The notes under the pieces are model-generated. The model was given only the letters and a program-made list of their open reading frames with translations. It ran no database searches and was not told where the DNA came from. The position numbers and the translations under genes were made by a program. Positions 1 through 60,270 of a stretch of 64,000 nucleotides of DNA are shown piece after piece (positions within the stretch are counted from its first letter, which is position 1; every line of letters begins with the position of its first letter). Origin of the DNA: Scenedesmus sp. PABB004 (lineage: Eukaryota); assembly GCA_014905635.1 (NCBI GenBank), contig JABVCE010000029.1:1-64000 (forward strand), written 5' to 3'.

Positions 1-1478
1 GGCGGGCGGCGCTCGCGCCGCGCGGCAATCGCCGCGCGCCGCCGCCCGCGCCAGCCCCGCGCGCCGCGCCCGGCGTGGCCGGGCAGGCCGGCGCAGGCCG
101 GCGCTGCGCGCCGCCGCTCGCACCGTTTTGTGTCGCAGCTCCATGCCCACGAGGGGCCCGAGCGAGTAGTTGCCGGCCATCACGCGCGTGTAGGCGATGT
201 TTAGGTGCCTGCCGTGTGTGAGGGGTGCGTGTGTGTGTGCGTGTGGGTGAGGAGGGCGTGCGCACCCAGCACGCGCAGCGCCCGCAGCGCGCCCAGCGCG
301 CGCAGCAGCCCACATCACACCCAAACACCCCCCCCCCCCTCACCCTCACCCCTCTCACCACCCATCACCCTCAGCCTCACCCTCACCACCCATCACCTGT
401 TAAGGGCCAGCATGAGCGCGACAGCGTGCTCCGCGACGCTCGTGGGGCTGTAGGTCGGCACGCGCGCGACCTTGATGCCCGCCGCCGCGCAGGCGCCCAG
501 GTCGACGCGCTCGTAGCCCGCACAGCGCATGGCCACCATCTTCACGCCCCCCGCGGCGAGGCGCTTGACCGCCTGGCGAGTCGGCCGCGGCGGACGACGC
601 GGCGTGGTAGGCGCGCGGGAGCGGCGGGGGTGAGCCGGCCTGTGCGGCGCGGCGCGGCGGCGCCCCGCGCAGGCACGCGTGCGCTGCGCCCCCCCCCCCC
701 CCCCCCCCCCCGCTGCGCCGCGCGCGCGCTTGGCGCCGCAGTCGTCGTTCACAAACAGGCACACCACGTCCGCGCCCGCCGCGAGCTCCGCGGTGTACCG
801 GTCCAGGCGGGCCTGGGGGCGGCGGCGGGGCGGCGGCAGGCGCGGCGCTGCTCGTGGGGCGCCCGCGCCGGCGCGGCGCGGCGCCGCCGCGGAGCCGCGC
901 CAGCCCCCGCCTGTCCGGCCGCGGCGCCGCGCGGCGCCGCACCTCCACAAACTCCACGTTGTCAAAGCCCGCCGCGGTGAGGGGCGGCCCCAGGAAGCTC
1001 TCCACGTACTGCGGCCGGCGGCAGCGGCGGCGGGCGTGGGGCGTGCGCGGGCGCTGGCGACGCAAGGCGGTGGCCACGCCCGCGCCGCGCCCCGCGCGCC
1101 GCGCCGCGCGCCGCGCCGCGCCTGCTGCGCGCTGTAAACGACGATCTTTGACTGCGGCGGCGCGGGCGGGCGGGCGGGCGCGGCGGCGTGGGCATGGCTG
1201 CAGCTCAGGCGGCCGGAAGGAGGCCGCGCGGGGCGCGGCGGGGGCGCGGGGCGAACCTGCGCCTTGCGCCACACCGCCTCCTCGCTGTCGGAGCTCGCCG
1301 CCGCGGGCACGGCGCCGTCCGTGGCGCCCGTCTGCGTGCCCGCGTCCGCGGCGGCGGCGACGCCGCGCCGCCGCGCCACGGCGGCCCGCCGCCCGGCCGC
1401 TGCAGCCGCTGCTGCGCTGCCGCTGCCGCCGCGCCGGGCGCCGGCCGCGCGCTGGCGCGTGGCGAGGGAGTGCAGCAT
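1..1478 (-). CDS. D-lactate dehydrogenase (D-2-hydroxyacid dehydrogenase family), spliced, 3' part runs off the window
   Basis: Joined exons read KIVVYSAQQ/YVESFL.../ARLDRYTAELAAGADVVCLFVNDDC/AVKRLAAGGVKMVAMRCAGYERVDL...ARVPTYSPTSVAEHAVALMLALNR/HLNIAYTRVMAGNYSLGPLVGMELRHKT, typical of LdhA-type enzymes. N-terminus is Ala/Arg-rich like a transit peptide. Confidence 0.92.
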
Positions 1479-1862
1479 CCTGGCCGGCCGCCGATGCGAC
1501 GATCTGGGGCGCCGGGAGGGCCGCTAGGGTGGCCGAGCTGCGGGGTGCCGAGCCGGGCCGATCGAGCGGAGCGCGCGGCACCTCTGGAGAACGGCCTGCC
1601 GAGCGTTGAGTGACGGGGAGCTGCGGGGACGCCAGCCGAGCAGCTCGCGCGGGCGCAGGGTCCAAGCGGCGGCATCTTCTTCGGAGCCCCGCGGCGGCGC
1701 GGCAGCGACGCCCCGCCGGCGCTGCGGCGCGAGGAGACGGCGATCGCGCGGAGCCGTGTGCAGAATCGAGCAGTTTCAGGGACGACGCGGCGCTTCGCAG
1801 CGCCTGCTAGCCCTCCCGCCGCCGCGGCCGCCGCCGGGTCAACGCGCACGCTACTGCGCGTG

Positions 1863-3461
1863 CTAGCCCTGGCCGCCGCCGCCGGGGTCGAACAGCGCCA
1901 GCGCGTCGTCGAGCGGCAGCAGCGCCACGCGCGGCTGCTGGTCGCCCGAGCCGTAGCCGATGAGGAGTTGGCGCGACTCCTCCAGCAGCTGCAGGCTCGC
2001 GGGGAACGCGATGTGCCGCCACTCCCGTATGCGCGGGTGCGGCCCGTACACGAGCGGCAGCGGCGCGCTGACTTGCAGGATCTCAAACGGCGGCGCGGCG
2101 GCCATCTTGTAGAGGTAGTTGGTGTAGGAGCGGTTGACCTCGACGTGGAAGATGCCCAGGTACACGTCAGCGTCACCCTGGCGGCCGCCCGACAGCAGCG
2201 CGGCCGGCAGCAGCACCGCCTGCGTGTTGCCGCGCGGCGGCGCCGCGAGGCGTCCCAGCACGGCGCGGCTGTCGGTCTCGTGCGCCACGACGCACGCGCC
2301 GTCGGGGCCGGGCGCGATGACGACGTGCGGCAGGAAGCTCTGCGCGGGCGGGGCGCGGGCGTCGTCGCGGGCGCCGGCGCGCGGGCCCAGCCGCCCGGCG
2401 GCGCCGCCCCCTCCCAGGGGGCGCGCACTGCACGCGCGCTGCGCCCCCCGTGCCTGTGAGAAGAGGAGGCGGTCACCGTGGAAGAAGGCGTTCCAGTTCT
2501 TCTCCTTGCGCAGGTGGTGGTGCGGCGCAGTAGACGCGTTGCGCGCGCCGCCAGCCCGCGCGCCGCCCGCGCGGCGCGGCGTGTAGCGCAGCCGCAGCGG
2601 CCACGCCGCGCGCGCCCACGCGTCGCCAGCGTCGCGCGGCGCGTGCGACAGCAGCGGCACGAGCCAGGGCTGCTGCACCCACGGCCCCGTGCACTGCGCG
2701 CCGGCGAGGCCGCCGCCGCGCGGGCTGGGCGCGGGGGGCTTGGCAATGAACATCAGCCACAGCCCCCGCCCCGGCCAGACCAGCAGGCGCGGGTCCTCGG
2801 GGCCTGCGCGCGCGGCGCGGCGCGGCGCGGCGGCGGCGTCAGCTGCTGGCAGCGGCTCGGCCGACCGGCGGGCGGCGCGCTGGCCCGGCGCGCCGGCCGC
2901 CTGCGCGCCGGGCGGCCGCCGCGACACACCAATCGACTCGAACCCGGCGCCCAGCAGGCAGTCCTCCGCCCAGCTGCGCGGGTCGTGGTCCGCGCACGCC
3001 GTCGGCTGCAGCGTCGCCTCGTCGAGCGTGCAGAGGCTGATGCCGCTCGACCACCAGCTCACCCACTTCTTCGCCGCGTCGCGGTCGGCCGGGTAGTCGA
3101 GCGTCTCGACGCGCAGGCTCAGGTAAAACTGCGTCCGCCGCACCGCGGCGTAGAAGCGGCCCCCGAAGCGCAGCACCGCGACGTTGCCGTGGTAGCTCCG
3201 CGTGCGGTGGTGCACGGGGAGCGCCTGCCCGCGCAGCGTGACGCCGGGGCCGTCGGCGGCCGACACGGCGGCGGCGTCGGCCGCCGAGAAATTGAGCGCG
3301 ACGTCGCTCGCGTGCTGCTGCGCCGTCCAGGCGGGCAGCGGCGCCAGGAGGCCGGGCGGCGGGGCTGCAGGCGCGCTCTCCGCCCCCGGCGGGGGCGCCG
3401 CTGCTGCTGCTGCCGCGAGCGCCGCCGCCGCGAGCAGCAGGCACGCTAGGCGGCGGCGCAT
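1863..3461 (-). CDS. Secreted predicted 5-bladed beta-propeller glyco-enzyme (beta-mannosyltransferase GT91 / GH130-like motifs), 3 exons
   Basis: Signal peptide [21 protein letters not shown]; spliced motifs G-PEDPRL, KEKNWNAF, PPRGNT and LLIGYGSGD. One GT-AG and one GC-AG intron (donor at 2453). Confidence 0.6.
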   Translation of the reverse strand: MRRRLACLLLAAAALAAAAAAAPPPGAESAPAAPPPGLLAPLPAWTAQQHASDVALNFSAADAAAVSAADGPGVTLRGQALPVHHRTRSYHGNVAVLRFGGRFYAAVRRTQFYLSLRVETLDYPADRDAAKKWVSWWSSGISLCTLDEATLQPTACADHDPRSWAEDCLLGAGFESIGVSRRPPGAQAAGAPGQRAARRSAEPLPAADAAAAPRRAARAGPEDPRLLVWPGRGLWLMFIAKPPAPSPRGGGLAGAQCTGPWVQQPWLVPLLSHAPRDAGDAWARAAWPLRLRYTPRRAGGARAGGARNASTAPHHHLRKEKNWNAFFHGDRLLFSQARGAQRACSARPLGGGGAAGRLGPRAGARDDARAPPAQSFLPHVVIAPGPDGACVVAHETDSRAVLGRLAAPPRGNTQAVLLPAALLSGGRQGDADVYLGIFHVEVNRSYTNYLYKMAAAPPFEILQVSAPLPLVYGPHPRIREWRHIAFPASLQLLEESRQLLIGYGSGDQQPRVALLPLDDALALFDPGGGGQG

Positions 3462-3688: not shown

Positions 3689-6600
3689 ATGCTGTGCCGG
3701 GCTGCGCGCCTCCGCGCCCTGGCCGCGCTGCAGCTGGGCGCCGCTGGCCACGGTGATGTGCAGCATCCTCAGGCCCTCCCGGCGGCCTGGTGGGCGCTGA
3801 CCGCCAGCCTGCGATCCTGCGCCGCCGCCGCCGCCGCCGCCGGCGGCAGCAGCTGCGCGCTCGACGGCGGTGCCGGCCTCCGCCGGCGAGCCGGCGGAGC
3901 TGGATGCGCCGGCCAGCAGCTGCAGCTGCAGCAGTCAGCCTGGAGCGCGCCGTCGGGCCGCGGCTTCGCGGCAGCCGGCGCGGCGGCGCCGCCGCCGCCC
4001 GGCGGCGCGCCCGGCGACGCGGCGAGGCGGGCGGCCGGGAGCAGCGGCGCCGCGCCCGACGTGGCGCTCGGCTTTGCGCGCGGCGGGTTTGACCCCGGCA
4101 TGTTCCCGCCCGAGCGCGTGCGCAACTTTTGCATCATCGCGCACATCGACCACGGCAAGAGCACGCTCGCGGACCGGCTGATGCAGGCCACGGGCGCAGT
4201 GCCGCCCGGGTCGCGGGCGCAGTACCTGGACCGGCTTGACGTCGAGCGCGACCGCGGCATCACGGTCAAGGCCCAGACCGCGTCGCTCGTGTGGGCGCCG
4301 CCGGGCGGCGGGGCGCCGTACCTGCTGAACCTCATCGACACCCCCGGCCACGTGGACTTCAGCTACGAAGTAAGTGCGGCGGCAGGGGCGGGGGGGGGGG
4401 GGCGGCAGAGGCGGCAGCGGCGGCAGCGGCGGCAGGGGCGGCAGAGGCGGCGGGGCGGCGGGGCGGCGGGGCGGCTGCAGCGCACACGCAGCGCACGCGC
4501 GCGGCGCGCAGCACGCGGCGCGCGGCGGCGGCTCGGCCAACGCGACGGCGGCCGCGCCCGCCGCGCCGCAGGTGTCGCGCAGCCTCGCGGCGTGCCAGGG
4601 CGCGCTGCTGCTGGTGGACGCGAGCCAGGGCGTGCAGGCGCAGGTGCGGCGCCCGCAGCGGGCGCCGGGCGGGCGCCGGGCGGCGCGCCGCGCCGCGCCG
4701 CGCCGAGCCGCGCCGCGCCGAGCCGCCCTCACCCCGCCGGCTGCCCCCGCTGACCGCGCCTGGCTGGCGCCGCCGCGGCCGCACAGACAGTGGTGAGCGG
4801 GCACTGGCGCTGGCCGCCGCGCCGCCGCCCAGCGCCGCGCGCACGGCGGGGCGCCCGCCGCCGAGGCCCGGGCCGCGCGGGCCGTCGCCGGCGCGCCTGA
4901 CTGAGCGCCCCCCCCCCCCCCTCCACGTTTGAAGGCCAACTTTTACCTCGCATTTGAGCAGGAGCTGGCGCTGCTGCCGGTGCTCAACAAAATCGACCTG
5001 CCCTCGGCAGACCCCCAGGGTGCGGGCACCGCCCGCGCGCCGGCGGGCGCCGCCTCGGCGCGTGCGCCCCCCGCACCCGCGCTGTGCCCCCTGACCGCCC
5101 GCCCGCCCGGCCCCCGGGCGCGCCGCGGTGCCAGCCGCGCTGGCGCAGATCGTGGCCACGTTCGACCTCCCCCGGGCGACGTGCTGTCCGTGTCCGCCAA
5201 GACCGGCCTCGGCCTCGACGCCCTGCTGCCGGCGGTCGTCGAGTGAGCGAGGAGGCCGCCGGCGCCGCCGCCGCCACCGCGACCGCCGCCGCCACGCCGC
5301 CCTCTGCGCCCACCGCGCCGCCGTCGCGGCCGCCGCCGCCGCCGCCGCGGCGCAGGCGCGTCCCGCCGCCGCGCGGCGACCCGGGCGCCCCGCTGCGGCT
5401 GCTCGTGTTTGATGCCTTTCACGACGAGTACCGCGGCGTGGTGGTGCTCGCGGCGGTCGTGGACGGGTCGCTGGCGGCGGGCGAGCGCCTCGCCGCGTGC
5501 TCCGACGGCCAGACCTACGAGGCGCTCGAGGTGCGCGCGGGCCTGTGCGCTGCGTGTGTGGGTGGGTGGGGGTGGGTGGGGGGGGGGGTGTGGGGGGTGG
5601 GGGTGGGGTGGGGGGGGGGGGGTGGCAGGCAGGTGCCGGCGCCGCGCGCGCGGGCGGCGCACACGCGCGGGCGGGCGCCAACGGCGCCGCCGGCGCCCGC
5701 AGGTCGGCATGCTCACGCCGGAGCCGCACCCGACCGGCAAGCTGCTCACCGGCCAGGCGCGCCGCGCGCGCCGCGCGCCGCCCGCGCCGCTGCGCCCCGC
5801 CCGCCCTGGCAGGGCGTTGCGCGTCCCTGACGCCCTGGCCCCCTCGCCGCCGCCCTCGCGGGGCCACCCACCTCAACAGGTGGGCTACATCATCCCGGGG
5901 GTGAAGGACGTCCGCGCCGCGCGCGTCGGCGACACCTGGCACGCGGCGCGCGCGCCCGTCGCGCCGCTGCCGGGGTTCAAGCCCGCCAAGCCCATGGTCT
6001 TTGCCGGTGCGCGGCGCCGCCCGCGCGGGGCACCGCTGCGGGGGAGGGCCGCCGCCGCGGGCGGCCTGTCGGGGTGCTGCTGCCTCGGGCCTCAGCCCCC
6101 GCCGCCGCCGCCGCGTGCGTGTGTGCGCAGGCCTGTACCCCGCGTCGGCGGACGAGTACGAGGGCCTGGCCGCCGCGATTGAGCGCCTGGGCCTCAACGA
6201 CGCCAGCGTCAGCGTGCGCAAGGAGACGAGCGACGCGCTCGGCGCGGGCTTCAGGCGCGCGCCGCGCGGCCACGCGGCCGCGCAGCGCAGCGCGGCGCGG
6301 CTCCACGGCGCGGCGCATCGCGCGCTTTGTCACGCACCGCGCGTCGCCGCCGCGCCGCGCCACCGCGCAGGTGCGGCTTCCTGGGGCCGCTGCACCTGGA
6401 GGTCTTCCTCGCCCGCCTGAGCGCGGAGCACCGCGCCGAGGTCATCTCCACCGCGCCGACGTGCAGCTACGAGCTCGAGCTCGCCGGCGCCGAGGGCGGC
6501 GCGCGGGTGACCATTGAGAGCGCGGCAGAGTTCCCGCGCCGCCACAAGGCGCGGCGGCGCCCGCGGCGGCGCCCGCGGCGGCGGGGCGGCGGGGTCGCTC

Positions 6601-7006
6601 CCGCGCGGCCGCTCCCGCGTCGCCGCTCCCGCGCACACGCGCTGCCCGCCCCGCCAGGTCGTGGCCATCCACGAGCCCACAGTGATTGCCACCATCATCA
6701 CGCCCCAGCAGTGAGCGCGGCGCGCTCGCCCGCGCGCACCGGCCGCGCGCCGCGGGCGCCCCCGGCCCCGCCCGGCCCGGCCTGGCTGCCGCCGCGCCAC
6801 GGACCTGCTGCTGCCCCCGCGCGCGCCCGCCGGCAGGCACTGCGGCGCGGTGATGAAGCTGCTGGCGGCGCGCCGCGGCGACCAGCTGGAATACAACTTC
6901 ATCGGCGGCAGCGGCGGAAGCAGCGGCAGCAGCGGCAGCAGCGGCAGCAGCAGCGGCAGCAGCGGCAGCCCTGGCGGCAGCGGCGGCGGGCTGGGCGCAC
7001 CAGACC

Positions 7007-7043
<37 letters not shown>

Positions 7044-7896
7044 GGCGGCGGCGGCGGCGGGCTGGGCGGGGACCGCGTGCTGCTGCGCTACACGCTGCCC
7101 CTGGCGGAGCTCGCGGGAGACTTTTACTCGCGCCTCAAGTCGGCGACCGCCGGGTGCGCGCGCGGCCGGCGGTCGCCCCGCGCCGCCGGGCGCGGCGCGT
7201 GGGCCGCAGCCCGCGCCCGCCGCGGCGCTGCGACACCCCGCCGCGCCCCGCGCCCCGCCCCGCCGCGCGCCGTGGCCAGGTATGCGTCGTTCGACTACGA
7301 GCCGGGGCCGCAGCGGGTCGCCGACCTGGTGCTGCTGGAGCTGCTGGTCAACGGCAAGCCCGTGGACGCGCTGGGCCGGCTCGTGCCGACAGGTGCGGCG
7401 CGGCGCGGGGCGGCGGCGGCGCCCGCCGCCGGCGCGCTGCCCTGCCAGACCCCGCCTGCCGCCGGCGCCGGCGGCGCCGCAGCCGACGCGACGCGGCTGG
7501 GCCGCGCGCTGGCGGCGCGCATGCGCGAGCTGCTGGACCGGCAGCAGTTTGAGGTGATCATACAGGTGCGTGTGCACACGCGGAACGTGCGCGCGCGCGC
7601 GGCAACGACAGCGGAGCCGCCCGGGCCCCAAGGGCCACTGCGCCCCGCTGCGCGCCGCCGCCGTGCCGCGCGCTGAGCGCGCCCGCCGCGCGCAGGCGTC
7701 GGCGGGCGGGCGCATCGTGGCGCGCGAGACGCTGCGCGCGCTGCGCAAGGACGTGCTGGCCAAGTGCTACGGCGGCGACGTCTCGCGCAAACGCAAGCTG
7801 CTCGCGAAGCAAAAGGAGGGAAAGAAGCGGATGAGACAGCTCGGCGGGCTGAGCGTGCCGTCCGACATCTTCCCCGAGCTCCTGAAGCCCGTGTGA
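3689..7896 (+). CDS. GUF1: Translation factor GUF1/LepA (EF-4), organellar (probably mitochondrial), 15 exons
   Basis: [68 protein letters not shown] and the C-terminal [20 protein letters not shown]. Contains a 6-nt exon at 4787-4792 and two apparent 1-nt frameshifts (near 5170 and 7041). Confidence 0.96.
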
Positions 7897-8193: not shown

Positions 8194-9534
8194 ATGGGCG
8201 CCTACGAGCTGCCCGCCGCGGCCGTCGCGAGCCTGGCCGACCCTGCAGCTCGCCTGGAGCTGCACGCCATCGTTTTCTCGCACTACTGCGCGCGCGCCGC
8301 CTGGGCGCTGCGGCTGTGTGGGTGCAGCTTTGAGGCCGTCGGCTGCCTGCCCCTGCAGCACATCCCCCACATGCGGAGCCTGCAGGCGAGCGCACTGCCG
8401 CGCGCGAGCCGTGCCGCGCGCGCGAGCTGCTGGCGCGGCGGCTCACCGCGCACCCGCCGCAACCGCCGCGCAGGCGCGCTTCGGCCCCGCCGCCGGCCGC
8501 GCCCGCCCGACCGCGTCGAGCCGCTCGCCCTATGCGACGCCCGCGCTCGCAATCTACGACGCGGCCGGCACGCCGCTCTGGTGAGCCGCGCGCCAAGGGC
8601 GCCCCGCGCGCGCTGTGCGCGCGCACGCCCGGCCGCGCCGGCCGCCGCGCGCCGCCGACGCCTCACCCGGCCGCACCCGCGTGCCGCCTCCCCTCTCAGC
8701 CTGCTGCAGGACAGCGCGCTCATCTCGCGCTATGCCGCGCTGCGCGGCGACGCGCTGGGCCTGCCCGGCGCGGCGCGCACGCTCTACGGCGCGGCGCCCC
8801 TCGCGCTCGCGCCGCCGGGCGGCGGCGCGGCGCTGGTGCCCGGCGAGGCCGCGGCGGCGGCCGCGGCGGCCGCCGGCGCTGGCGCGGGCGCGTGGGCGGT
8901 CGTCGGGCGCGGCGCGTCGTACGACGCGATCGCCGCGGCGGAGCTGCGGCTCGAGGGCCCGGTGGGCGTGGAGGCGCGGCGCGTGGTGTACTTTTACATG
9001 CTGCCCCTGCGCCGCGTCGGCGGCGCGATCTTTGCGCGCAACGCGACCGGCGGCGCCCTCGCGGCGGCGGTCTCATACTGGGTCAGCCGCCTGCTGCTGC
9101 CGCGCCTGCTGCGCGTCAACGCGGCCACCGCCGCGGCGGGCGAGGCGAAGCTGGCGTCCGAGTTTGACTACTTTGACGGCCTGCTGGCGGGCGGCGGCGG
9201 CGCGCCGCACCGCCACCTCTTCGGTGACGCGCTGAGCGCGGCCGACGTGTCGCTCGCGACGCTCACGGGGCCGGTGGTCGCCGTGCCGGCGGAGCTGCAG
9301 GACATTTGGACGCCCGCGCCGGCCGAGCTGCCGCCGGCACTGCGCGAGCTGGTCGAGGTGCGGCCTGCGCGCGCTGCCAGCTGCGGGCCCGCCTGCGCCG
9401 CCCGAGCCCGCAGCCGCTGACCGCCGCCGCCGCCGCCGCCGACGCCGCAGGCGCTGAGCGCGCGCCCGACCGGGCAGCTGGCGCTGGAGCTGTGGCGCAC
9501 GTACGGGCCGCGCGCCGCTACGGCCAAGATCTAG
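8194..9534 (+). CDS. Glutathione S-transferase-like protein, 4 exons
   Basis: N-terminal FSHYCARAAWAL thioredoxin-fold motif, TP...QDSALI and C-terminal HLFGDALSAADVSLA (GST N-capping box). TAG at 9532-9534. Confidence 0.78.
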
Positions 9535-25000: not shown

Positions 25001-25508
25001 CTGGCCCCCCTCCACCGCCCATCCCCCCCCCCCCACACACACACACACGCACGCACGCACACAGGTGCTGATCATGAGCTTCCTGGGCATGTTCTTCAAG
25101 GTCCAGCAGCTCCGCTACGACGAGTGGCTCGTCACGGTCGCCATCGGCGCGGGCGCCATGCTCTGGTCCCTCGCCGTGCGCGCGCTGAGCCGCACGGTCG
25201 GGTGCGGCTGCGGCGCGCTCGGCGCGGCGGTCAGCGGCCGGCTGGCGCGCATGAACCAGGTCCGCACCAAGGCCATGGCCGCGGCGGACCGCGTGTACAG
25301 CAGCGCGGAGGGCCGCGAGCTCAGCGTGGCGCAGGCGGTCGGCCTCGCGCGCGGCAGCGCGGCGGCGCAGGCCGAGGCCGAGGCGGCCGCGGCGGAGGGG
25401 AAAAAGGAAAAGAAGGAGAAGCGCCGCGCAGAGCGCAAGGGCAGGGCGGGCACCCGCGAGGAGCGCACGCTCAGCGGCCGCTCCGACAGCGCGGGGTCCA
25501 TGCTGTGA
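19008..25508 (+). CDS. P-type IIB Ca2+-transporting ATPase (PMCA/ACA/PMC1-like), about 21 exons
   Basis: [83 protein letters not shown] and [11 protein letters not shown]. Confidence 0.97.
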
Positions 25509-30354: not shown

Positions 30355-30430
<76 letters not shown>

Positions 30431-49862: not shown

Positions 49863-52452
49863 TCAGTCCTCCTCGCCCTCCTGCCCCTCGCCCTCCGCCT
49901 CAGCCTCCTCCTCAGCCTCCGCCTCCGCAGCCGCGGCGGCAGCCTCGGCCGCGGCGTCGGCGTCGGCGTCGGCCTTGGCGCCTCGCGCCGCCGCGAGCGC
50001 CGCCTCCGCCGCGAGCGCCGCCTCCGCCGCGGCGCGGGCCGACGCCGACGCCGCCACGCCGGCCTCCGCGCTCCGAGCCGCCGCCGCGACGCGCGCGACG
50101 CGCCGCACCTGCGCGAGGGCGGTCGGGGCGGGTCGCTCGCTGCCAGGCTGGTGCCCCCCCCCTCCTTCGGCGCCGCACCTGCTTGACCCACTGCAGCAGC
50201 ATCGCGCCCAGGCCGCACTGCGGCAGCTCGCGCTCCAGCTCGCGCGCGGACGCGACCTTGTAGGCGGCGCGCACCCTGCGGCGGGCGCGCGATGAGCGGT
50301 GGGCGGCCGCGACCGCTGCCCACCCGCGTTTCGGCACGCCTCGCGGCGCCGCGCGACCGCGCCCCGCGGCCGCGCACCTGCCCCACAGCGCCGCGTCGCG
50401 GTCCTGCGTGGCGTCAAAGGCGCCGAGCTCGTCGAAGAGGCCCGCCGTGAGCGCGGCGCTGAGCTCGCGCCAGCTCGCGAGCGCCGACGGCGCGCGGCCG
50501 AGCAGCAGCAGCGCGCCGCGCAGCACCGCCGCGGTCGACGGCGGGCTGGACGGCGCGAGCCTGAGCGCGCGGATCGCGGCGCCGCGCACGGACGCCATGG
50601 CCGCCGCGATGGCGGCCAGCACGCGCTGCTCCAGCTCGAGCGCCGCCGACGCGCGCGCGCGGCGGCCGCCGCGCCCGCCTCGGCGCGGCGCTCGGCGGCC
50701 GCGAGCTGGGCCTCGGCGCGCGACACCAGCTCTTCCGGCGCCAGCGGTTCGCCGCCCTCGCCGCCGCCCTCTTCCTCGCCGGGCGCCGCGTCTTCCTCGT
50801 CTGCGGCCGGCGGGCGGGCGGGCGCGGGCGGTGAGCGAGCAGCGCGCGCACAGGCTGCCCGGCCGCCAGCACAGCGCAGCAGCTGCAGGCCGGCGCGCGC
50901 GCGCACCCTCGGGCACGGGCGCGAACGGCGGCGCCGCCGCGCGCAGCTCGGCCACCGCAGCCGCCAGCGCCGCGAGCGCCTCGGCGCCGCCGCCGCGCGC
51001 CGCGTCGGCCTTGCGAGCCGCGGCCGCGCCGTCCAGCGCCTGGCCCAGCGCCTGCGCCACCTGCGCGTGCGGCGGTCGCGCCAGCAGCGGTGGCGGTCTC
51101 GGCCGCCGCGCCCACTGCACGCCCCACGCGCCGGGCGCCCGGCACGGCAGCTGCACCACGCGCGCGCGCCGGCCAGGCCACGCCGCGCGCCCACCTGCCA
51201 GATGAACGCCACGTCCTCCTCGCCCAGCGGCTGGCCGCTGCCGTCCGGGAGCAGCGTGTCGGCCGCCAGCACCGCGTGGAACTCGCCGCCCGCGGGCCGC
51301 CCCGCCCCGCCGGCACCGCCGCCGCAACGTAGCCGCCGATGCGCGGCGGGCCGCGCAGGAAGGTCACGCGCGGCTCGTCCGCGACGTGCGGCACCTGGAC
51401 ACGGCGCGCGGGTGAGCGGGTGAGCGGGTGAGCTGCCGCGCTGGCCGCCCGCAGGCCGCCCCTTCGCGCCAGCCGCCCTGCGCCGGCGCGCGCCTGCAGC
51501 AGCGGGACGTGCTCGTCGAGCAGCCGGAACGTCACCGGCCCCGCCTCGGGCCGCGCGGCGCCGCCGGCGTCGCCGTCTTCCGGTGCCGGGCGGCGCAGCG
51601 TGAGGGTAGTCATGAACTCCTGGCCCGCGCTGGCCGCCACGTAGCGCAGGAGCTTGCCAGCATAGTCGGGCGGCGGCGGCAGGCCAGGCGGGCCGCCGCC
51701 CTCCCCGCCCTCCCCGGCCCCGCCGCCGCCACCGTCCGCCTCATCACGCTCGCCGTCGCCGCCGCCGTCGTCGCCGTCGCCGCCGGCGCCCGGCTCTGCG
51801 GTCGGGCTCAGCAGTCGGGGGCCGCCGCGTGGCGCACGCCGGCGCGGCGCGTGGCCGCAGCGCACGCGTGCGGCGTGCACGCACCCGCGCCGCCAGCCTC
51901 GTCCTCGCTCTCCGCGTCGGCCTCGCCCTCGCCGGGCGGCGCCCAGTCGGGCCGCTCCTCGTCCACGATGGCCGCGACGTACGCCGCGCCCGCGGACGTG
52001 TGGCGCTTGACCAGCTGCACCGTGGTGGACCACAGCAGCGCCGGCTCCGCGACCAGCGCCGCCAGGCCTGCCACGGCGGTGCGCCGCGCGGCTTCCGCCG
52101 CGGCGGCGGCGGCCGCCGCCTCCGCCGCGCGCGCCGCGCGCCGCTGCTCGGCCGCGGCGGCCGCCTTCTTCTCCTTTGCGCGCGCCGCCGCCTGCTGCTC
52201 CGCCGCCACGAAGCTGCGGAGACGGGAGTGGGTGAGCTCAGGGAGCGGCGGCGGGGCGTGCGGGGGGCGCGGCGCGGCGCGGCGCGCGCGATTGACCGCG
52301 CGCGCAGTCGCCGCTCACCGCAGCAGCCACTCGCCCAGGTGCGCCACGGGATCGTCGGGCGCGGCGCTGACCGTGGCCGCCACGCCACGGGCCAGTGCGT
52401 CGCCCACGGTGGCGACCAGGTAGGCGCTCTCGTCGCCCGCCGGCGTCGCCAT
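49863..52452 (-). CDS. RSP2: Flagellar radial spoke protein 2 homolog (Dpy-30-like N-terminus, GAF-like region)
   Basis: AYLVATVGDALARGVAATVSAAPDDPVAHLGEWLL, VQLVKRHTSAGAAY, PDWAPP, DYAGKLLRYVAASAGQE and LAADTLLPDGSGQPL, colinear with Chlamydomonas RSP2 as I recall it. Acidic C-terminal tail. Confidence 0.85.
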
Positions 52453-52763
52453 GGCGCTCGGACCTGCGCGGGCCGCTGCGGCGCTCGCTGCAGCGCTGCG
52501 CCTGCCTGTAGAGACCACGCAATCTTGCGTGTGTGGTGTTGAGACTGAAAACAGGCCCGAAACCATTGCACGCGCGGCGCGGCGCCGCAACGACGGCGGC
52601 GGGTCGGCCAGCGTGCGGTTCAGGGCTGGCCAGCGCCAGGAGCCCGGGCCCCCCGGTCGGAAGCAGGCCCAGACTCCGCGCGCAGCCCCCGGCATCGGGG
52701 CGTGCCGCCGCCGGCTCGCCACCGCCGCCGCCGTGCAGACGCCCGCTGCTGCTGCCGCACCGC

Positions 52764-54795
52764 ATGTCCTGGCTGCGCCGCGCGCTGGGCCGGCTGCAAC
52801 AGCGCGCCCGCATGTCCACCAGCGCAGCCGCGGGGTCCGGCGCCCCAGCGGCAGCAGCTCAGCAGGTGCCAGCCGCCGCCGCTGCCGCGCGGCTGCGCGC
52901 GCTCGCGGCGCAGCTGGAGGCGCCGCCGCCGGAGGCAGGGGGCTGGCAGCAGCAGCACGTCGCCGTGGCGGAGGCGCTGCAGGGCCTGGCACGCGAGCTG
53001 CTGCGGGGCGGCCAGGCGGCCGCCGCGGACGGTGCGCGGCAGCGCGGCGGCGCGCGGGGCGCGCCCGCCGGCGTCGGCGCGCGCGCCGGCTGAGCCCGCC
53101 GCCGCGCCGCTGCAGACGTGGCGGCGCTGGAGCGCAGCTTTGCCGCGCCACCCGCGCCGCAGCAGCCCCCGACCAAGCGGCAGCGCCGAGGTGCGCGCGC
53201 AGCACGCGGCGTGCCGCGCCACGCCCCCGACCCAGCGGCAGCGCGGCGACCCACGCCGGCCCGTCCCCGCACCACGCGCGGCGCCACCCGCAGGCGACCG
53301 CGTGTTTGACTCGTCGCGCTACGGCACGCGCTACGTGGCGCTGCAGGTGCTGTACGTCGGCGCCGGCTTCCACGGCCTCGCGCGGCAGGAGACGACCGAG
53401 CAGACGATCGAGGCGCGCGCCGGGCGGCGGCGCGCGGCCGCGGCGCGGCGCGCTGCTGCTGGCGGCCGGGGCGCCCGCCCGCATGCCGGCGCGTCAGCCG
53501 TCTTCTCACTTGCGCGCGGTGCACCGCGCAGGGCAAGCTGTTCCCCGCCCTGCGCCGCACGCGGCTCATCCCCGAGGACGCCGACGTCTCCTCGCTCGCC
53601 TACAGCCGCTGCGGGCGCACCGACAAGGGCGTGTCGGCGCTGGGGCAGGTGCTCGCGCTGCGCCTGCGCTCGAGCGCGCCCGCGGGCGGTGCGCCGCCGG
53701 CCGCCGAGGCTGAGCTGGACTACCCTGCCATCATTAACAAGGCCCTCCCAGACACCATCCGCGTGCTCGCCTGGGCCGACGTCGCGCCCGAGTTCAACGC
53801 GCGGTGCGTGGCCGCCGCCTCGCGTGCCTGGCCGCCGCCCGACCGCCCGCTCGCTGTCGCACCTGCCCGCTCGCCCGTCGCACCCGCCCGCCCGCCGTCG
53901 CACCCCCCGCCCCGCCCCGCCGCGGCGCCCTGAACCCCAGGTTTGACGCGGGTCACCGCGAGTACCTCTATTTCATACCCAACGACGGCGCCCTCGACCT
54001 GCCCGCGATGGCGGCCGCCGCGGGGCACCTCGTGGGCGAGCACGACTTCAGGCACTTTTGCAAGGCGGACGTCGCGCAGGCGCGCCGCCGCGGTTGGGGG
54101 GCGCCGCGCCGCGCCGCGGCCTGCGGGGGCGCCACGCGCGGCGCGCCCACGCGGCACACGGCGCGCCCGCGGCGGCGCGCAGGTGAAGAACTTTCGGCGC
54201 GTGGTGCTGTCGGCCGGCATCGAGCCGGCGGGCGTCGCGTGCGCCGGCATGAGCGTCGTCGCGCTGCGCATCCGCGGCACCGCCTTCCTCTGGCACCAGG
54301 CGCGGCCCCGCTGCGATCGCGTCGCCGCCGCGCCGGCCGCGCCCGGTCGGCCGCCGGGGCCGGGGCACGCGGGTTCAGGGTCTCGCGCACGCCGAGCGCG
54401 CGCCCCCGCCGCGCCCGCGCCCGCGCGTGCGCGTGGCGCCGCAGGTGCGCTGCATCGCCGCCGTGCTGCTGATGGTGGGGCGCGGCCAGGAGGCGCCGGG
54501 CGTCGTGGCGCGCCTGCTCGACGTGGGCGCGACGCCGCGCAAGCCGCAATACGGCTACGCCGCGGAGGAGCCGCTGCTGCTGCACGCGTGCAGCTTCCCC
54601 CGCCTCGCCTGGCGCCGCAGCGCGGCCAACCTGGAGCGCTGCCTCGCCGCGGTGGGCGGGCAGCTGCAGCGCCACCTGGTGGCCGCCGCGCTGAGCAGCG
54701 CGATGTACGAGGAGCTGCAGGCCTGCTGGCGTGCGGCGGCGGCGACGGGGCAGCGGCAGGAGACAGAGCAGCAGGTGCAGGAGCAGCAGCATGTT

Positions 54796-54858
<63 letters not shown>

Positions 54859-55098
54859 CAGCAGCAGGAGCAGGAGCGGCAGCAGCATGAGCAGCAGCAG
54901 GAGGGGCCGCGACCGCTGCTGCCCGGGAGCGCGGCCGCCCCCGCGGACGGCGGCCGCTGGCTGCTGCCCAAGCCGGCGCACATCCCGCTGCTGCGTCGGG
55001 CGACGGAGCCGAGCATGGAGGAGCGCTTTGCCAAGGCGGGCATCCCGCTGGAGCTGCTCAACCAGCCGGCCAGCGCGCGCATCGGCGCTGCCGAGTGA
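52764..55098 (+). CDS. PUS3: tRNA pseudouridine(38/39) synthase, TruA family, 7 exons
   Basis: FDSSRYGTRYVALQVLYVG, YSRCGRTDKGVSALGQV, EFNAR/FDAGHREYLY, GEHDFRHFCK, GTAFLWHQ/VRCI and KPQY. Poly-Q near 54797-54853. Confidence 0.93.
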
Positions 55099-55209
55099 CG
55101 GCGGCACGGCGCTGAGTGGCGGCGGGTCTCGTAACTCAGAAGAGGCAGGCCGCCGCGCGCCCGCTCACGCGCCTGCGCGGCGAGCCGCCGCCGTGCGCGC
55201 CGCCGCCGT

Positions 55210-56997
55210 CTAGTGCCGCCGCGTGCCGCTTGCCAGCCCGGCCCGCCGCCTCTCGCGCGTCGTTCGCCTCGCGCGCCTCCAGCTCCGGCTGCCAGCTGCC
55301 GCCGGCCCAGTCGGCCCAGTCGGGCCAGCCCCGCTCGGCCAGCTCGCTGGGCGCGCCGAGGCTGCCCGCCTCGGCCGCCGCGCTCTGCGCGCGCTCGCTG
55401 CCCTCCCCCACCGCCCCCTGGCCCTCCGGCTCCTGCTCCTCCTCGCCTGCGCCGAGGCCGTCGCCGGCCGCGGCGAGCACGGCGGCGGCTGCCGCGGCCC
55501 CCGCCGCCGCTGTGCGCGCCCGGCCGCGCCTGCCGCCGCGCGCCGCCTGCTGCTGCAGCTTGAGCTGCCGCGCGGCCACGACCGACTTTGCGGCCAGCGC
55601 CTGCGCCGCCGCGGCCTCCAGCGCGGCCAGCAGCCCCTCGCGCAGCGCCTGCGGCTCGCAGCCGAGCAGGCTGCACGCCTGCTGCCGTGCGTGCGCGTCC
55701 GCCGCGCGCCTGCGGGGCGGCCGGGGCGGCTGGGCGCCGGGGCGCCGGGGCGGGGCGCGGTCGCGCGCGCTGGGCCTCCGTGACGCACGGCACGGCGCGG
55801 CCGGCGGCCGGGCTCACGTGATGATGCTGGCGAGGCTCGCTGAGATGGGCGGCAGGGCCGCCACGACGGCGCTCTCCAGCTTGCCCGCCAGGTAGCCGCG
55901 AGGCAGGCGGGACTTGAGCGCCAGCAGGCTGGCCTCGCACGCGCCCAGGAACAGCGCCGTGCAGCGCGCGCGCGACAGCACGGGCGGCTTGGGCGGCGCG
56001 CCGCGGCGGCGCGGCGCGGCGTGCCCGCCCTGGCTGGGCAGCGCGGCGGCGTCCTGCGAGGCCGCGGCCGCCGCCGACGCCGGCTGCCCCGCGTCGCCGC
56101 CGCCCTCCGCGTCGGGCTGCGCTCCGTGCGCGTGGGGGCGGGCCAGGCGGTCGGTGCTGCAGACCACCAGCGCCAGCGGGGTGACCATGGCGTCCGGCAG
56201 CACGCCCAGCATGAGCACGCCTGCGCGGCGCACGGCGGCGGCGGCGCTGAGGCCGCGCGCTGCACGGCTGCTGCGCCCGCGCACGCCGCGATGGGCGCGC
56301 ACCGCTCGAGTCGCCGGCGGCGCTGCTGGCCGCAAAGTCCTGGAAAGCCAGCCCAAACTCCGCCCAGCACACTGCGGGCGGCGTGGCAGGGCGTGGCGCG
56401 TCCGGCACGCGGCGCGGCCCCCGAGGGCCGCCGACGCAGCGCCGCGTGCCGCGCACCCTTGCTGAGCGCCTTGGCGAGCCCCGGCGGCGGCGCCGTGGGC
56501 ACGCCGTCGGCGAGCGCCAGCACGCGGCACGACACCTCCAGCGCCGCCAGCCCGCCGCCCGCGCCGGCGGCGGCCGCGGTCGGCAGGCCCTCCGGCACCA
56601 GGCAGGCGGTGGCCACCCAGTCCGTCTCCCGCCCGCCGGCGCCGCCGGCGACGCGGCAGTGTTGGCTGCCGGCCACGACCACGGGCGGCGGCGCGGGCAG
56701 CGGCGGCGCGTCGTCCGGTCCGGCGCGCGTGAGCGCCGCCGCGCCGGATGGCCGGTCGGAGGCAGGGCTGCCGGGGCTGCCGGGGCTGCTGGGCGGCTGG
56801 GCCGGCGCCTGGGCGCCCGGCTGCGCCGCCGTGAGGCCGTCCGCGACCGCCGCACGCACGAACGCGGGGACCGTCTCCACGACCCACGACACGCTATCGC
56901 TGGCGGCCTTGGCGGCCGAGAGCGCTTCCACGATCGCCGCGAGCTGCCGCAGGTGCAGCGGCGCGTCGGCGGCAACGCCGCGGGCCGGCGACGACAT
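55210..56997 (-). CDS. Candidate meiotic TOPOVIB-like (MTOPVIB) transducer-domain protein, 4 exons
   Basis: Clean 4-exon ORF. Segments RVLALADGVP..LAKALSK/VCWAEFGL, GVLMLGVLP..LALVV and LPPISASLASIIT/RAADAHARQQACSLLG resemble, in order, the WKxYG switch motif and C-terminal helices of plant MTOPVIB (comparison from memory). Confidence 0.5.
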   Translation of the reverse strand: MSSPARGVAADAPLHLRQLAAIVEALSAAKAASDSVSWVVETVPAFVRAAVADGLTAAQPGAQAPAQPPSSPGSPGSPASDRPSGAAALTRAGPDDAPPLPAPPPVVVAGSQHCRVAGGAGGRETDWVATACLVPEGLPTAAAAGAGGGLAALEVSCRVLALADGVPTAPPPGLAKALSKGARHAALRRRPSGAAPRAGRATPCHAARSVLGGVWAGFPGLCGQQRRRRLERCAPIAACAGAAAVQRAASAPPPPCAAQACSCWACCRTPWSPRWRWWSAAPTAWPAPTRTERSPTRRAAATRGSRRRRRPRPRRTPPRCPARAGTPRRAAAARRPSRPCCRARAARRCSWARARPACWRSSPACLAATWRASWRAPSWRPCRPSQRASPASSREPGRRPRRAVRHGGPARATAPRPGAPAPSRPGRPAGARRTRTHGSRRAACSAASRRRCARGCWPRWRPRRRRRWPQSRSWPRGSSSCSSRRRAAAGAAGRAQRRRGPRQPPPCSPRPATASAQARRSRSRRARGRWGRAASARRARRPRRAASARPASWPSGAGPTGPTGPAAAGSRSWRRARRTTRERRRAGLASGTRRH

Positions 56998-57146
56998 GCT
57001 GCGCCGCCGGGCGCGCCTGCGCCTGCCGGCCGAGCGCAGGGAGGCCGCGCGGGATCGGGTGCGGGTCAGGTCCGGCTGTGCGCGGGGTGGATCAGACGCG
57101 CGGCGAAGCTGTCGCAGTCGGGGGTTTAAAGTTGAGCCCCGCGCCC

Positions 57147-58718
57147 TCAGTCGATCGTGATCTTGGGCGGCGCCGCGGCGCCGGCGATGCTGCTGCAGGG
57201 GCTGGCCGTGAGCTTGTCGACCAGCCGCGCCGCGATGCGGTCGTACGCCACGCCCGCGGGGCTCTCCGGCGCGGCGAGCACGACCGGCACGCCCGCGTCC
57301 GACTGCGCGCGCACCGCGCCCGCCAGCGGCACCTGCGGCGCGCCGGGCGGCCCGGGCGCGGGCCCTGGTGAGCGCGCGCCGGCTCGGCGGGCGCCGCGCG
57401 CCCGCGCGCCGCGGCTGCCGCCGCTGCTGCTCCGCCGCCGCCCCTCTGCCCCTCCAGCGCGCGCGCCTGGCCCAGCAGCTCGATGCCCAGCTCCTCGGCC
57501 GCTGCGCCGCCGCCGCCCGCGCCGAAGATATCGTCGCGCGCGCCGCACGCGGGGCAGGCGTAGTGCGACATGTTCTCCACCAGCCCCAGCAGCGGCACGT
57601 GGACCTTGCGGAACATTTGCGCGCCGCGCCTGCGGCCGCGCGGCGCCCGCAGGGCGGCGCCGCGCGCGCCGTGGGCTCGCAGGACGCGCCGCGCAGCGCG
57701 CCCGCGCGTCGGCGCGCGGCGGCCGACCGCTTGCAGGACGCGTGCGCGCGCGCGTCCTGCGAGCGCACCGCGCGTCGAGCAGCGCCACGTCCTGCGGCGT
57801 CGACACGATGACCGCGCCGGAGAGCGGCAGGCGCTGGCCCAGCCCGATCTGCGCGTCGCCCGTGCCGGGCGGCAGGTCGACGAGCAGCACGTCCAGCGCG
57901 CCCCACGCCGTGCCGAGCAGGAAGCGATCGATCGCGCTGTTCACGATCGGCCCCCGCCACACGACCGGCGCGTCGCCCTGCGCGGCGGCGGCGGCGGCGG
58001 TGGCGGGGTCAGCTCTCCGCGCGATTGCGTCGGCGTCGTGGTTTGACGCCTGCCGCCACTCTCTCGCGTCGCCCCGCTGCCCGGTGGCGCGCCTGCATGA
58101 AGAACCCCATGGACATGCACTTGACGCGGTGGTTCTCCAGCGGCAGCATCAGGCCCTCTGCGCGCCGGCCGCGCCACGGCACGCGCGGCGCGCTCGGCGA
58201 CGGGGCCGGCGCGCAGAGGGCGGCGCGGCGGCGGCGACCGCCCGGCGGTCGGCGCGGCACGGCCCGCGCGCACCTGGTGAGGCCTCGGGCTCGCCGTCCA
58301 GGCCCATCATGGTCGGCAGGCTGGGGCCGTGGATGTCGGCGTCCAGCAGCCCCACGCGCCAGCCGTGCCGCACCGCCAGCGCGACGGCGAGGTTCACTGC
58401 GCAGCGAGGGCGTCAGGGGCCGGCCGGCGCGGCGCGCGCCAGCTCGCTGGCCGGCCGGCGGGCGCGCCGCGGACGGCGCAGCCAGCGCGCCGCGCGCCGC
58501 GCCGCGCCTGCGACGGTCGACTTGCCGACGCCGCCCTTGCCGCTGGCGACCGCCACCACGCGCTCCACCTCCGCCAGGCCCAGCCGCTTGCCGGCCGCGA
58601 CGGTCTTGCCGCCCGGCTTGGCGGCACCGGCAGCGGCGCCGCCGCCCGCCGCTGCCGCTGCGAACGCCCGCAGCGGCGCCGCAGCGAGCTGCAGCGCGCG
58701 CGCGGCAGACGGGCGCAT
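57147..58718 (-). CDS. IND1: Mitochondrial Mrp/NBP35-family Fe-S P-loop NTPase (complex I assembly), 6 exons
   Basis: [62 protein letters not shown] and [13 protein letters not shown]. Mitochondrial-type presequence and no N-terminal Cys cluster. Confidence 0.92.
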
Positions 58719-58941: not shown

Positions 58942-59051
58942 CCGCGGCGCGGGGGTGGGACGAGCCAGCCAGCTTACCCACAGAGAGCCGCCCGCGGCGC
59001 GGGGGTGGACGAGCAGCCAGCCTTACCAACAGAGAGCCGCCCGCGGCGCGG
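58942..59051. repeat. Imperfect tandem duplication (about 50 bp) right after the ISY1 stop
   Basis: ccgcggcgcgggggtgg(g)acgagc(c)agccagc..ttacc.acagagagccgc occurs twice, plus a partial third copy. Confidence 0.85.
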
Positions 59052-60270
59052 CTACTGCTTGTTCAGCAGCGCCTTGGCCTCCGCCTGCTGCGCGGCGAGC
59101 GCCTCGCTCGTGTACTTGGCCAGCAGCTCCTGCTTCTTCTTCGCCAGCACCAGCTGCTCGATCGCCCGCTGGTCCGGCAGCGGCACGTACGCGACAAACT
59201 GCTGCTCGCCGGCCTCGCCGCCGTCGGCGCCGTCGGCGCCGCCGCCGCCGCCCCCCGCCTTGCCGCGGCGCGCCTTGTCCGTCACGCCCGCGAGCGCGGC
59301 GTTGCGCTCGGCCTCCTTCTCGCGCCACTCGGCCTCCGCCTGCGGCCGCAGCGTCGGCGGCGGCGGCGGCGGCAGCGTCGGCGCCGCGCTCCCTGCGCCG
59401 CGCCTGGGCCGCGCGACGGCCTCCCGCCCGCCCTCTCGCTCCCGCCCGCCCCCGCTCACCGCCGCGAGCAGCGCGCCCTGCGCCTCCGCCTCGACGCGCA
59501 GCAGCAGGCCGTCCTCCTCGTCCTTGAAGCCATAGTAGTCGGGCGTGATGGACTTGTGCATCTGCATGCGCGTGCGCACCGCCTGCGCGCACGCAGCACG
59601 GCCGCGGGCGACGGCGGGGGGCCGCGTGAGCGCGGCCGCGCGCGCCGCGGCGCGCGGCAGCGTGCGCGCGGCGGCGTGCGCGCAGCGTGCACGCGCACGC
59701 ACCGGCTTGGGCGGCGCCTTTTCGAAGAGCTCCCGCACGCCCGGCAGCGTCTTGGCGGCGCCGAAGTATCGGTACCCCGGGCCCCGGCTGTCGGCGAGCT
59801 CGTTGCCCTCGCTGTCGGTGATCTTGGGCGCCGATTTTGCATAGTCTGGCCCCCCTAGCGCCACGATGCGCCGCTCCCAGTGGCCCTTCTCGCGGATGAG
59901 CTTGTTGATCTCGTCGTTCAGGTCCCGGATCCTGCGCGCCGCGCGGGCAGCGGTGGGGCGCGGCGGTCAGCTGGGCGGCTGTCTGGTCTTTGTGCGCGCC
60001 GCCGCCGCGCCGCCGGCGCCGCGCCGCTGCCGGCGGGCCCCGTGCGCGCGCGTGCGCGCGCCTGTGCTCGCCGAGGCCGGCGTTCTGGATCTCCATGACC
60101 TTCTTGCCGATCTCCCGCAGGATCTGCTGCCGCCACTTGTCGGCCTCATTGAGGTCGGTGCACTCGGACGCGAGGTACGGCCGCCGCGCCTTCTCGCCGC
60201 GCGCCTCGTCTTTTTTGCCCTGCAGGAAGCGGTTGAGCATAGACTGCGCCTTCTCCTGGTTGCGCGCCAT
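59052..60270 (-). CDS. ISY1: Pre-mRNA splicing factor ISY1, 4 exons
   Basis: MARNQEKAQSMLNRF, RRPYLASEC, EIQNAGLGEHR/IRDLNDEINKLIREKGHWERRI, GYRYFGAAKTLPGVRELFE and YYGFKDEEDG. Confidence 0.97.

Follow-up and report, generated by a model that had tools for sequence, protein, structure and literature searches.

GC-AG introns at strong donor sites in a 64-kb window of the very GC-rich green alga Scenedesmus sp. PABB004

Introns that begin with GC instead of GT at the donor site and end with AG (GC-AG introns) were studied in the first 64,000 nucleotides (nt) of contig JABVCE010000029.1 of the chlorophyte Scenedesmus sp. PABB004. This whole 64-kb stretch is called the window, and positions are counted from its first letter. 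An earlier note on this DNA had listed GC donors at about 29 of about 140 introns. Judged from the genomic sequence, these introns are confirmed as genuine and well above chance: AG|GC is read at all 29 listed coordinates on the listed strand, 18 of the 29 sites are supported at residue resolution by spliced alignment to the proteins of other organisms, a Pfam profile or PDB chains, none was refuted, and our own gene finder placed 138 introns in the window. In this one window, at very high GC content and with acceptors that are still AG, the share of GC-AG introns is far above about 1%, and it would amount to roughly 20-30% of the introns. We consider it probable (about 0.75) that these introns derive from GT-AG introns under pressure towards GC, are of the major-spliceosome type and are kept only at donors that are strong in every other respect.

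The GC content is 76-81% along the whole window. The genome assembly (GCA_014905635.1) has 39.8 Mb, 78.5% GC and 7,092 genes (table in PMC12571836), which bears out the description of the source as an extreme-GC chlorophyte. On the exon side, the 29 sites read CAG (25 sites), AAG (2) or GAG (2), and the introns start with GCGCG (26), GCACG (2) or GCGAG (1). Both the exonic AG that had been described before every listed donor and the prevalence of GCGCG, a mirror of the GTGCG donor of the species, therefore hold.

Evidence for the GC-AG junctions

Junctions were placed with our own protein-to-DNA spliced aligner, which uses BLOSUM62, three intron phases, AG acceptors and a selectable set of donor dinucleotides. 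The queries were orthologues of the P-type Ca-ATPase (P0002-P0004) and of PUS3, DRC11/IQCA1-like proteins, and bacterial LepA and Mrp proteins. Five genes of the window were resolved by homology in this way: LepA (4112-7887), the Ca-ATPase (19008-25505), the DRC11-like gene (26100-31149), PUS3 (53130-54700) and Mrp/NUBPL (57150-58619). The GC-AG introns with residue-level support in these genes, in RPAC1 and in Isy1 are listed below, where "unconstrained donors" means that the site was also chosen when any donor dinucleotide was allowed.

5757-5879, plus strand: LepA/GUF1; CAG/GCGCGC, phase 0; three of three bacterial LepA proteins and unconstrained donors
6255-6370, plus strand: LepA; CAG/GCGCGC, phase 2, within the conserved GFR/CGFLG; three of three bacterial LepA proteins and unconstrained donors
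6549-6657, plus strand: LepA; AAG/GCGCGG, phase 0; three of three bacterial LepA proteins and unconstrained donors
10847-11191, minus strand: RPAC1 (RNA polymerase I/III AC40); CAG/GCGCGC, phase 0; aligned to PDB chain 7a6h_C, with exon 1 reaching residue 102 and exon 2 beginning at 103
20384-20530, plus strand: P-type Ca-ATPase (ACA11); phase 0; P0001 at 100% identity, three orthologues agree; GT in relatives
21715-21849, plus strand: Ca-ATPase; phase 0; P0001, P0003 and P0004; GT in L131
24553-24783, plus strand: Ca-ATPase; phase 0; P0001, orthologues and unconstrained donors; GT in the loci of five relatives
24895-25064, plus strand: Ca-ATPase; phase 0; P0001, P0002 and P0004; GT in L155
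27422-27572, minus strand: DRC11/IQCA1-like AAA gene; phase 0; four of four homologues and unconstrained donors
28432-28551, minus strand: DRC11/IQCA1-like; phase 0, acceptor AAG; four of four homologues and unconstrained donors
29224-29369, minus strand: DRC11/IQCA1-like; AAG/GCGCGC, phase 0; four of four homologues and unconstrained donors
53413-53531, plus strand: PUS3-type tRNA pseudouridine synthase; GAG/GCGCGC, phase 0; four of five orthologues and unconstrained donors
54080-54182, plus strand: PUS3; phase 0; four of five orthologues and unconstrained donors
54300-54444, plus strand: PUS3; phase 0; five of five orthologues and unconstrained donors
57333-57466, minus strand: Mrp/NUBPL-type P-loop NTPase; phase 0; three of three bacterial Mrp proteins and unconstrained donors
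57978-58092, minus strand: Mrp/NUBPL-type; phase 0; three of three bacterial Mrp proteins and unconstrained donors
58397-58507, minus strand: Mrp/NUBPL-type; phase 1, directly after the P-loop; three of three bacterial Mrp proteins and unconstrained donors
59932-60061, minus strand: Isy1 splicing factor; phase 2; Pfam Isy1 positions 1-72 and 71-253 on the flanking frames, and reading of the sequence

The GenBank protein ACA11 (P0001) maps to 19008-25505 at 100% identity with 20 introns. Its four GC-AG introns are the four that had been claimed, and they are thus already part of the public annotation. The orthologous Ca-ATPase model of Tetradesmus obliquus (P0002) repeats a 16-residue segment just before the position of the 21715 intron, and this has the look of a mis-annotated intron border in that species. 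It was also observed that Isy1, itself the gene of a splicing factor, holds a GC-AG intron, 130 nt long and without any GT dinucleotide.

When the aligner was restricted to GT donors, the score fell in all 18 comparisons over the five genes. For the ATPase, this restriction lowered the scores from 4152 to 3877, 3491 to 3266 and 2678 to 2490. The corresponding losses on removal of GC donors were 1236 to 1079, 1205 to 1086 and 1226 to 1070 for LepA; 683 to 508, 579 to 425 and 511 to 366 for Mrp/NUBPL; 1350 to 1196, 1198 to 1045, 854 to 692, 854 to 674 and 697 to 567 for PUS3; and 2118 to 1748, 1526 to 1291, 1266 to 1028 and 744 to 619 for the DRC11-like gene. As a control, decoy dinucleotides were offered, and the score gains were 280 for GC, 261 for CG, 199 for CC, 170 for TG, 156 for CA, 123 for GG, 63 for GA and 33 for AG. 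As the decoys regain much of the lost score, homology shows that these introns have no usable GT, and on its own it locates the boundary only to within about one codon. When any of the 16 donor dinucleotides could be chosen at the same cost, 70 introns were placed, at 34 GT, 20 GC and 16 other donors, the last of which lie mostly in poorly aligned stretches or beside true GT donors; of the 16 sites claimed in the five genes, 15 landed exactly on the claimed AG/GC.

The 7-mer AGGCGCG acts like a signal in the five genes, as it occurs 25 times in the sense direction (16 times as a donor and 5 times at acceptor junctions) compared with 5 times in antisense; for AGGTGCG, the counts are 19 and 2. 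Away from acceptor junctions, 4 of the 20 sense copies of AGGCGCG are not verified donors (at 21535, 29638, 29506 and one within a DRC11 intron), and two of these four are in parts of DRC11 where the model is not settled. That so few copies are not donors is a hint that exons are under selection to avoid cryptic GC donors.

For the remaining 11 listed sites, the evidence is of several kinds. Weak homology support was obtained for two of them (45831 and 10427), and at seven (1121, 36421, 40407, 45193, 48246, 48870 and 51493) it consists of the gene finder together with the consensus context. The other two are 8386, which is plausible by eye, and 2453, which would be either an intron or coding.

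The gene finder was trained on the confirmed exons and introns, with codon log-odds and with donor flank weights taken from GT donors only; of 38 confirmed introns inside known genes, it finds 31-36 again. At the chosen setting, with the strands resolved, its 138 introns include 36 with GC donors and 23 of the 29 claimed sites; over six settings, the total was 113-173 introns. Among the 13 extra GC donors, 10 are without the AG/GC consensus, 2787 and 55276 are on the wrong strand and 30439 is in low-complexity sequence; they were all rejected. Runs in which the strands were not resolved gave 138 and 165 GC introns per strand, a heavy over-prediction, and were discarded as a count. We take the listed sites to be nearly complete and 29 of about 140 to be a fair figure, with a 95% interval of 14-28%. 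In the five homology-resolved genes, which were picked for holding claimed sites, 16 of 58 introns are GC-AG.

Donor context and probable origin of the GC donors

Donor context was compared over 60 verified introns of the window, 42 with GT and 18 with GC donors. The GT donors carry G at +3 in 41 of 42 introns, C at +4 in 34 and G at +5 in 40. The exonic AG, which stands before 18 of 18 GC donors and 17 of 42 GT donors (p = 6e-6), agrees with the reliance on the exon side that the earlier note had proposed, and GCG at +3 to +5 is found in 18 of 18 GC donors compared with 32 of 42 GT donors (p = 0.025). When both are combined, the context AG/G_GCG holds 18 GC and 13 GT donors, and outside it there are 29 GT donors and no GC donor; among these introns, the GC donors are confined to AG/G_GCG.

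The two groups do not differ in median length (134 nt for GC and 136 nt for GT introns) or in the acceptor, which is CAG in 17 of 18 GC and 40 of 42 GT introns. A next exon that starts with GT follows 9 of 18 GC introns and 11 of 42 GT introns, which is not a significant enrichment (p = 0.13). Phase 0 is seen in 15 of 18 GC and 23 of 41 GT donors, only a trend (p = 0.075), and one that is expected because 2% A at third codon positions means that exonic AG mostly ends a CAG, AAG or GAG codon.

In ordinary GC-AG introns, a stronger consensus at the remaining donor positions compensates for the C. The GC-AG introns of the window likewise have a stronger consensus at the other donor positions than the GT introns, and they are otherwise like the GT-AG introns of the same species in length and acceptor. 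The description of AG/GCGCG as an atypical consensus could not be upheld in this respect, as the context rule is that of ordinary GC-AG introns and only the consensus itself is specific to the species.

Orthologous introns in relatives with lower GC content were examined for one gene, along the lines that had been suggested. A single scan of metagenomes with the ATPase protein as query yielded homologous genes with introns, on contigs whose GC content is 46-63%. These have introns at the same codon boundary and in the same phase as all four ATPase GC introns of the window, and every one of them has GT after exonic AG:

P0001 position 220, window GC donor 20384: GT in L155, L159 and L131
P0001 position 456, window GC donor 21715: GT in L131
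P0001 position 944, window GC donor 24553: GT in L146, L155, L156, L158 and L161
P0001 position 981, window GC donor 24895: GT in L155

The relatives have 0-1 GC donors per locus in the well-aligned parts. By parsimony, the ATPase GC donors of the window would be old GT donors in which T has changed to C. A GC donor was also seen in one relative (L155:9500-16500, 56% GC), where CAG/GCACGC stands at ATPase position 640 and the window has GT, which indicates that turnover between GT and GC at strong donors also takes place outside the PABB004 genome.

The introns themselves, the context rule and the four old introns with GT in relatives are observed; the direction and the cause of the change, as well as removal by a standard spliceosome, are our inference. 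The introns would first have been ordinary GT-AG introns, and T would have changed to C at intron position +2. The driver would be the same pressure towards GC, by mutation bias and/or GC-biased gene conversion, that has brought the genome to 78.5% GC and the introns to about 85% GC. A C at +2 would then persist where the exonic AG (-2, -1) and the GCG (+3 to +5) are already optimal for the species, and elsewhere selection would retain the T.

This could be put into rough numbers by treating +2 as a site in mutation-selection balance. The interiors of the introns have C at a frequency of 0.465 and T at 0.080, a ratio of about 6:1, from which an unconstrained site would carry C rather than T in about 85% of cases. 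C is found at +2 in 18 of the 31 permissive donors, a share well above that of other genomes but below the 85% expected (p = 2e-4), which suggests that T is still weakly preferred. On this rough estimate, the scaled cost of a GC donor would be about 1.4 in the permissive context and about 2.6-3.1 over all donors. Plants have 1.2% GC-AG introns on average at a genome GC of 36%, as reported in PMC6310983, and the same arithmetic would give a cost of about 3.9 if a C:T ratio of about 0.57 is assumed. The excess of C over T in introns can on its own explain most of the rise in GC donors. Altered recognition, which the earlier note had inferred, is not required by the data, since the GC donors are found only in the strongest context and the old positions have GT in lower-GC relatives. 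The interpretation in that note is supported in part, for the kind of organism and for the reliance on the exon side.

Several points weigh against this explanation or the data on which it is built. By the same rough estimate, composition would give an about 10-fold rise over 1.2%, and the observed rise is about 17-25-fold, so that a 2-3-fold remainder is left; its source could lie in weaker selection, in biased gene conversion or in a real change of recognition. The junctions are known from genomic DNA, homology and the gene finder, not from transcripts; 11 of the 29 sites are without residue-level homology support, and homology alone places a boundary only to about one codon (a gain of 280 for GC against 261 for CG). 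Single proteins also disagree with individual junctions: P0002 shifts 21715 to 21757 (21763 with any donor dinucleotide), P0003 puts 24895 at 24839/24844, in its divergent tail, P0011 puts 53413 at 53419, 6 nt off, and the Chlamydomonas protein P0024 misaligns at 54080 and misses the junction. As for the frequency, the GC count of the gene finder depends on the penalty (26-90 over six settings), and the share of 16 of 58 is biased upward by the choice of genes. The comparison of orthologous introns covers one gene, the relatives have 51-67% protein identity and may be paralogues, and there are duplicate loci among them (L158/L161 and L159/L160).

A change in the splicing machinery, either in the base pairing of U1 with +2, in U6 or in a protein factor, could allow C to be accepted nearly like U and make GC donors about neutral. 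We regard this as unlikely, and it would be compatible with a compositional origin. GC donors do outnumber GT donors in the permissive context, 18 to 13, the 2-3-fold excess beyond composition in our rough estimate could reflect relaxed recognition, and the donor consensus, GTGCG, differs as a whole from the GTAAGT of textbooks; for a similar donor in Ostreococcus, a possible co-variation of small nuclear RNAs (snRNAs) is raised by Irimia and Roy (PMC2483917). However, none of the 29 donors outside the best context is GC, and C at +2 stays below neutral composition (p = 2e-4); both would fit a standard machinery that tolerates the C. It is similarly doubtful that the spliceosome has co-evolved with composition, so that a U1, U6 or protein change makes C at +2 nearly neutral at AG/G_GCG. 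If this were true, GC-AG would be moving towards the place of main donor that it has in Emiliania huxleyi, and the 5' splice-site code of a green alga would be undergoing an independent rewriting, still under way, in which orthologous introns segregate for GT and GC.

Wrong gene models, in which nearby GT donors would be used, with small differences in the protein, or the stretches would be no introns at all, are very improbable. Stop codons are rare in GC-rich DNA, which makes read-through possible from sequence alone, the boundary is known from homology only to about one codon, and 2453 is in frame and could be coding. Against this, the 18 junctions bring conserved residues together exactly, models limited to GT work only with contrived double introns or with the loss of conserved residues, the Isy1 intron offers no GT at all, and 15 of 16 sites fell on AG/GC with no constraint on the donor. 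Slightly less probable still is that the C at +2 arose by error in assembly or base calling and that the genome has GT at these donors. Some platforms err in GC-repeat-like sequence, and the motif lies in sequence of this kind. Yet a random error would not be linked to an exonic AG three to four bases upstream (18 of 18 against 17 of 42), at least 18 independent sites would have to be affected, and AGGTGCG stands intact 38 times in the window; E. huxleyi, moreover, has such donors, confirmed by reverse transcription polymerase chain reaction (RT-PCR), as reported in PMC4028052. Removal by the minor (U12-type) spliceosome, or C-to-U editing of the pre-mRNA before splicing, is scarcely credible, and nothing in the window speaks for it. 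U12-type introns have a donor box motif of their own, and all 29 donors read GCGCG, GCACG or GCGAG, which is not that box. We know of no editing of nuclear pre-mRNA at splice donors in green algae. Chlorophyta are reported to be without minor introns and minor snRNAs (PMC11347168).

Remaining listed sites and gene content of the window

The probable and candidate introns at the other 11 listed sites are as follows.

45669-45831, minus strand: probable GC-AG intron, glycoside hydrolase family 1 (GH1); Pfam positions 54-91 and then 100-182 fit the junction; one of three bacterial homologues; gene finder
10271-10427, minus strand: probable GC-AG intron, RPAC1; CAG/GCACGG; junction in agreement with a weak PDB match (7aoc_C, E = 0.92); gene finder
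1009-1121, minus strand: candidate GC-AG intron, 2-hydroxyacid dehydrogenase; gene finder only, lost at some settings
36421-36549, plus strand: candidate GC-AG intron, LRR protein; GAG/GCGCGC; coding potential stops at 36420; gene finder
40407-40620, plus strand: candidate GC-AG intron, gene without an assigned family; coding potential stops at 40406; gene finder
45089-45193, minus strand: candidate GC-AG intron, GH1; gene finder only, bacterial homologues being too distant
48080-48246, minus strand: candidate GC-AG intron, mTERF; gene finder
48724-48870, minus strand: candidate GC-AG intron, mTERF; coding potential stops at 48871; gene finder
51282-51493, minus strand: candidate GC-AG intron, gene without an assigned family; coding potential stops at 51494; gene finder, acceptor uncertain
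8386-8473, plus strand: candidate GC-AG intron, GST-like; CAG/GCGAGC, then a short exon at 8474-8580 that is followed by a GT donor at 8581; judged by eye on letters and reading frames
2340-2453, minus strand: candidate, intron or coding; a 114-nt in-frame stretch that starts CAG/GCACGG

The gene finder did not recover 8386 or 2453, and a PDB search with the GST-like gene gave no match. GCACGG stands in the place of GCGCG at 2453 and 10427, and the GCGAGC at 8386 is the counterpart of GTGAGC, a minor variant among the GT donors. For GH1, the bacterial homologues are distant: L086 scored 324 with or without GC donors and chose neither claimed site, L087 chose 45831 and L088 chose 45825, and the PDB search fixed the exon start only. 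When the amidohydrolase was aligned to bacterial homologues, two clear GT introns were found (13987-13890 and 13719-13634), and no consensus GC donor was present in the remainder of that alignment.

Pfam scans over the 547 stop-to-stop reading frames of at least 60 amino acids in the window revealed an intron-dense eukaryotic gene set. It includes genes for a 2-hydroxyacid dehydrogenase, LepA/GUF1, a GST-like protein, RPAC1, an amidohydrolase, a class-3 lipase, the P-type Ca-ATPase, an AAA protein, a U-box protein, an LRR protein, GH1, mTERF, a Dpy-30 protein, a TruA-type pseudouridine synthase, an Mrp/NUBPL-type NTPase and Isy1. An Rfam scan of the 64 kb found no RNA family, snRNAs included, and a tRNA scan of the same sequence found no tRNA gene.

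Exon queries from the PUS3-type gene (52600-55400, plus strand) and the DRC11/IQCA1-like gene (25900-32000, minus strand) returned proteins of other algae only and none from PABB004. Both genes may therefore be absent from the public gene set (7,092 genes) or wrongly modelled there, and that set may be incomplete. The only return for the exon with the AAA P-loop, P0006, was of no value as a homologue, as it is a faulty 272-amino-acid model with retained introns.

In the G domain of LepA, a micro-exon of 6 nt, or two codons (4787-4792, plus strand), stands between GT-AG introns at 4644-4786 and 4793-4934 in all three bacterial LepA alignments. Further downstream in the same gene (6711-7153, plus strand), a Gly/Ser-rich low-complexity stretch at about 6844-7041 scores as coding and has no counterpart in bacterial LepA; it could be inserted sequence or belong to an intron.

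Comparison with known systems

No published report of elevated GC-AG introns in a green alga was found, the per-species supplementary tables of PMC6310983 and PMC7072748 aside. Among the nine papers that name PABB004, elevated GC-AG appears in no title or abstract, and the text of PMC12571836 contains neither "splice" nor "GC-AG".

The nuclear genome of PABB004 ranks with the most GC-rich ones known. It shows how strongly composition can push a signal that is nearly invariant and where the push ends, with the T at +2 lost only where the exonic AG and the GCG at +3 to +5 compensate. The same introns with GT in relatives and GC here form a natural series from which the fitness cost of a GC donor could be measured, and with the introns of PABB004 it could be tested directly whether snRNAs and the composition of a genome evolve together. 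There is also a practical consequence, as gene finders that allow only GT donors would mis-model at least one fifth of the introns in PABB004 and in other very GC-rich algae, as in E. huxleyi, where ab initio models are reported to have under-called GC donors (PMC4028052).

A close parallel is E. huxleyi, a haptophyte with 65% GC, in which GC is reported at about 60% of the donors, confirmed by RT-PCR and attributed to the genome's GC content (PMC4028052). In both species, GC makes up a very large part of the donors, and the acceptors are still the canonical AG. They differ in lineage, PABB004 being a chlorophyte, and in degree, as GC is the majority donor at 65% GC in E. huxleyi, whereas in PABB004 it would reach about 20-30% at 78.5% GC and is found in the best context only.

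The pelagophytes Aureococcus anophagefferens and Pelagomonas calceolata are reported to have about 14-17% predicted GC-AG introns, compared with 0.32% in the lower-GC Aureoumbra, and these rates were again attributed to genome GC (bioRxiv 10.1101/2024.10.30.620910). The contrast with a lower-GC relative resembles that of PABB004; unlike it, the pelagophytes are stramenopiles with few introns per gene, and their values come from annotation only. Across kingdoms, genome GC is reported to correlate with the GC content of splice sites (PMC7072748).

Within the chlorophytes, Ostreococcus lucimarinus is described with GTGCGTG donors (Irimia and Roy 2008, PMC2483917) and so shares the GTGCG donor core with PABB004. 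It is intron-poor with rigid signals, whereas PABB004 is intron-dense, and GC-AG introns are not mentioned in the text of that paper.

The ordinary GC-AG introns of plants and animals, at about 1%, are U2-type, as those of PABB004 would be, and share with them GC at +1/+2, an AG acceptor and a stronger remaining consensus. They read AG/GCAAGT, whereas PABB004 has its own AG/GCGCG, at a frequency about 15-25 times higher. To summarise, PABB004 is an extreme and unusually clean case of a known phenomenon.

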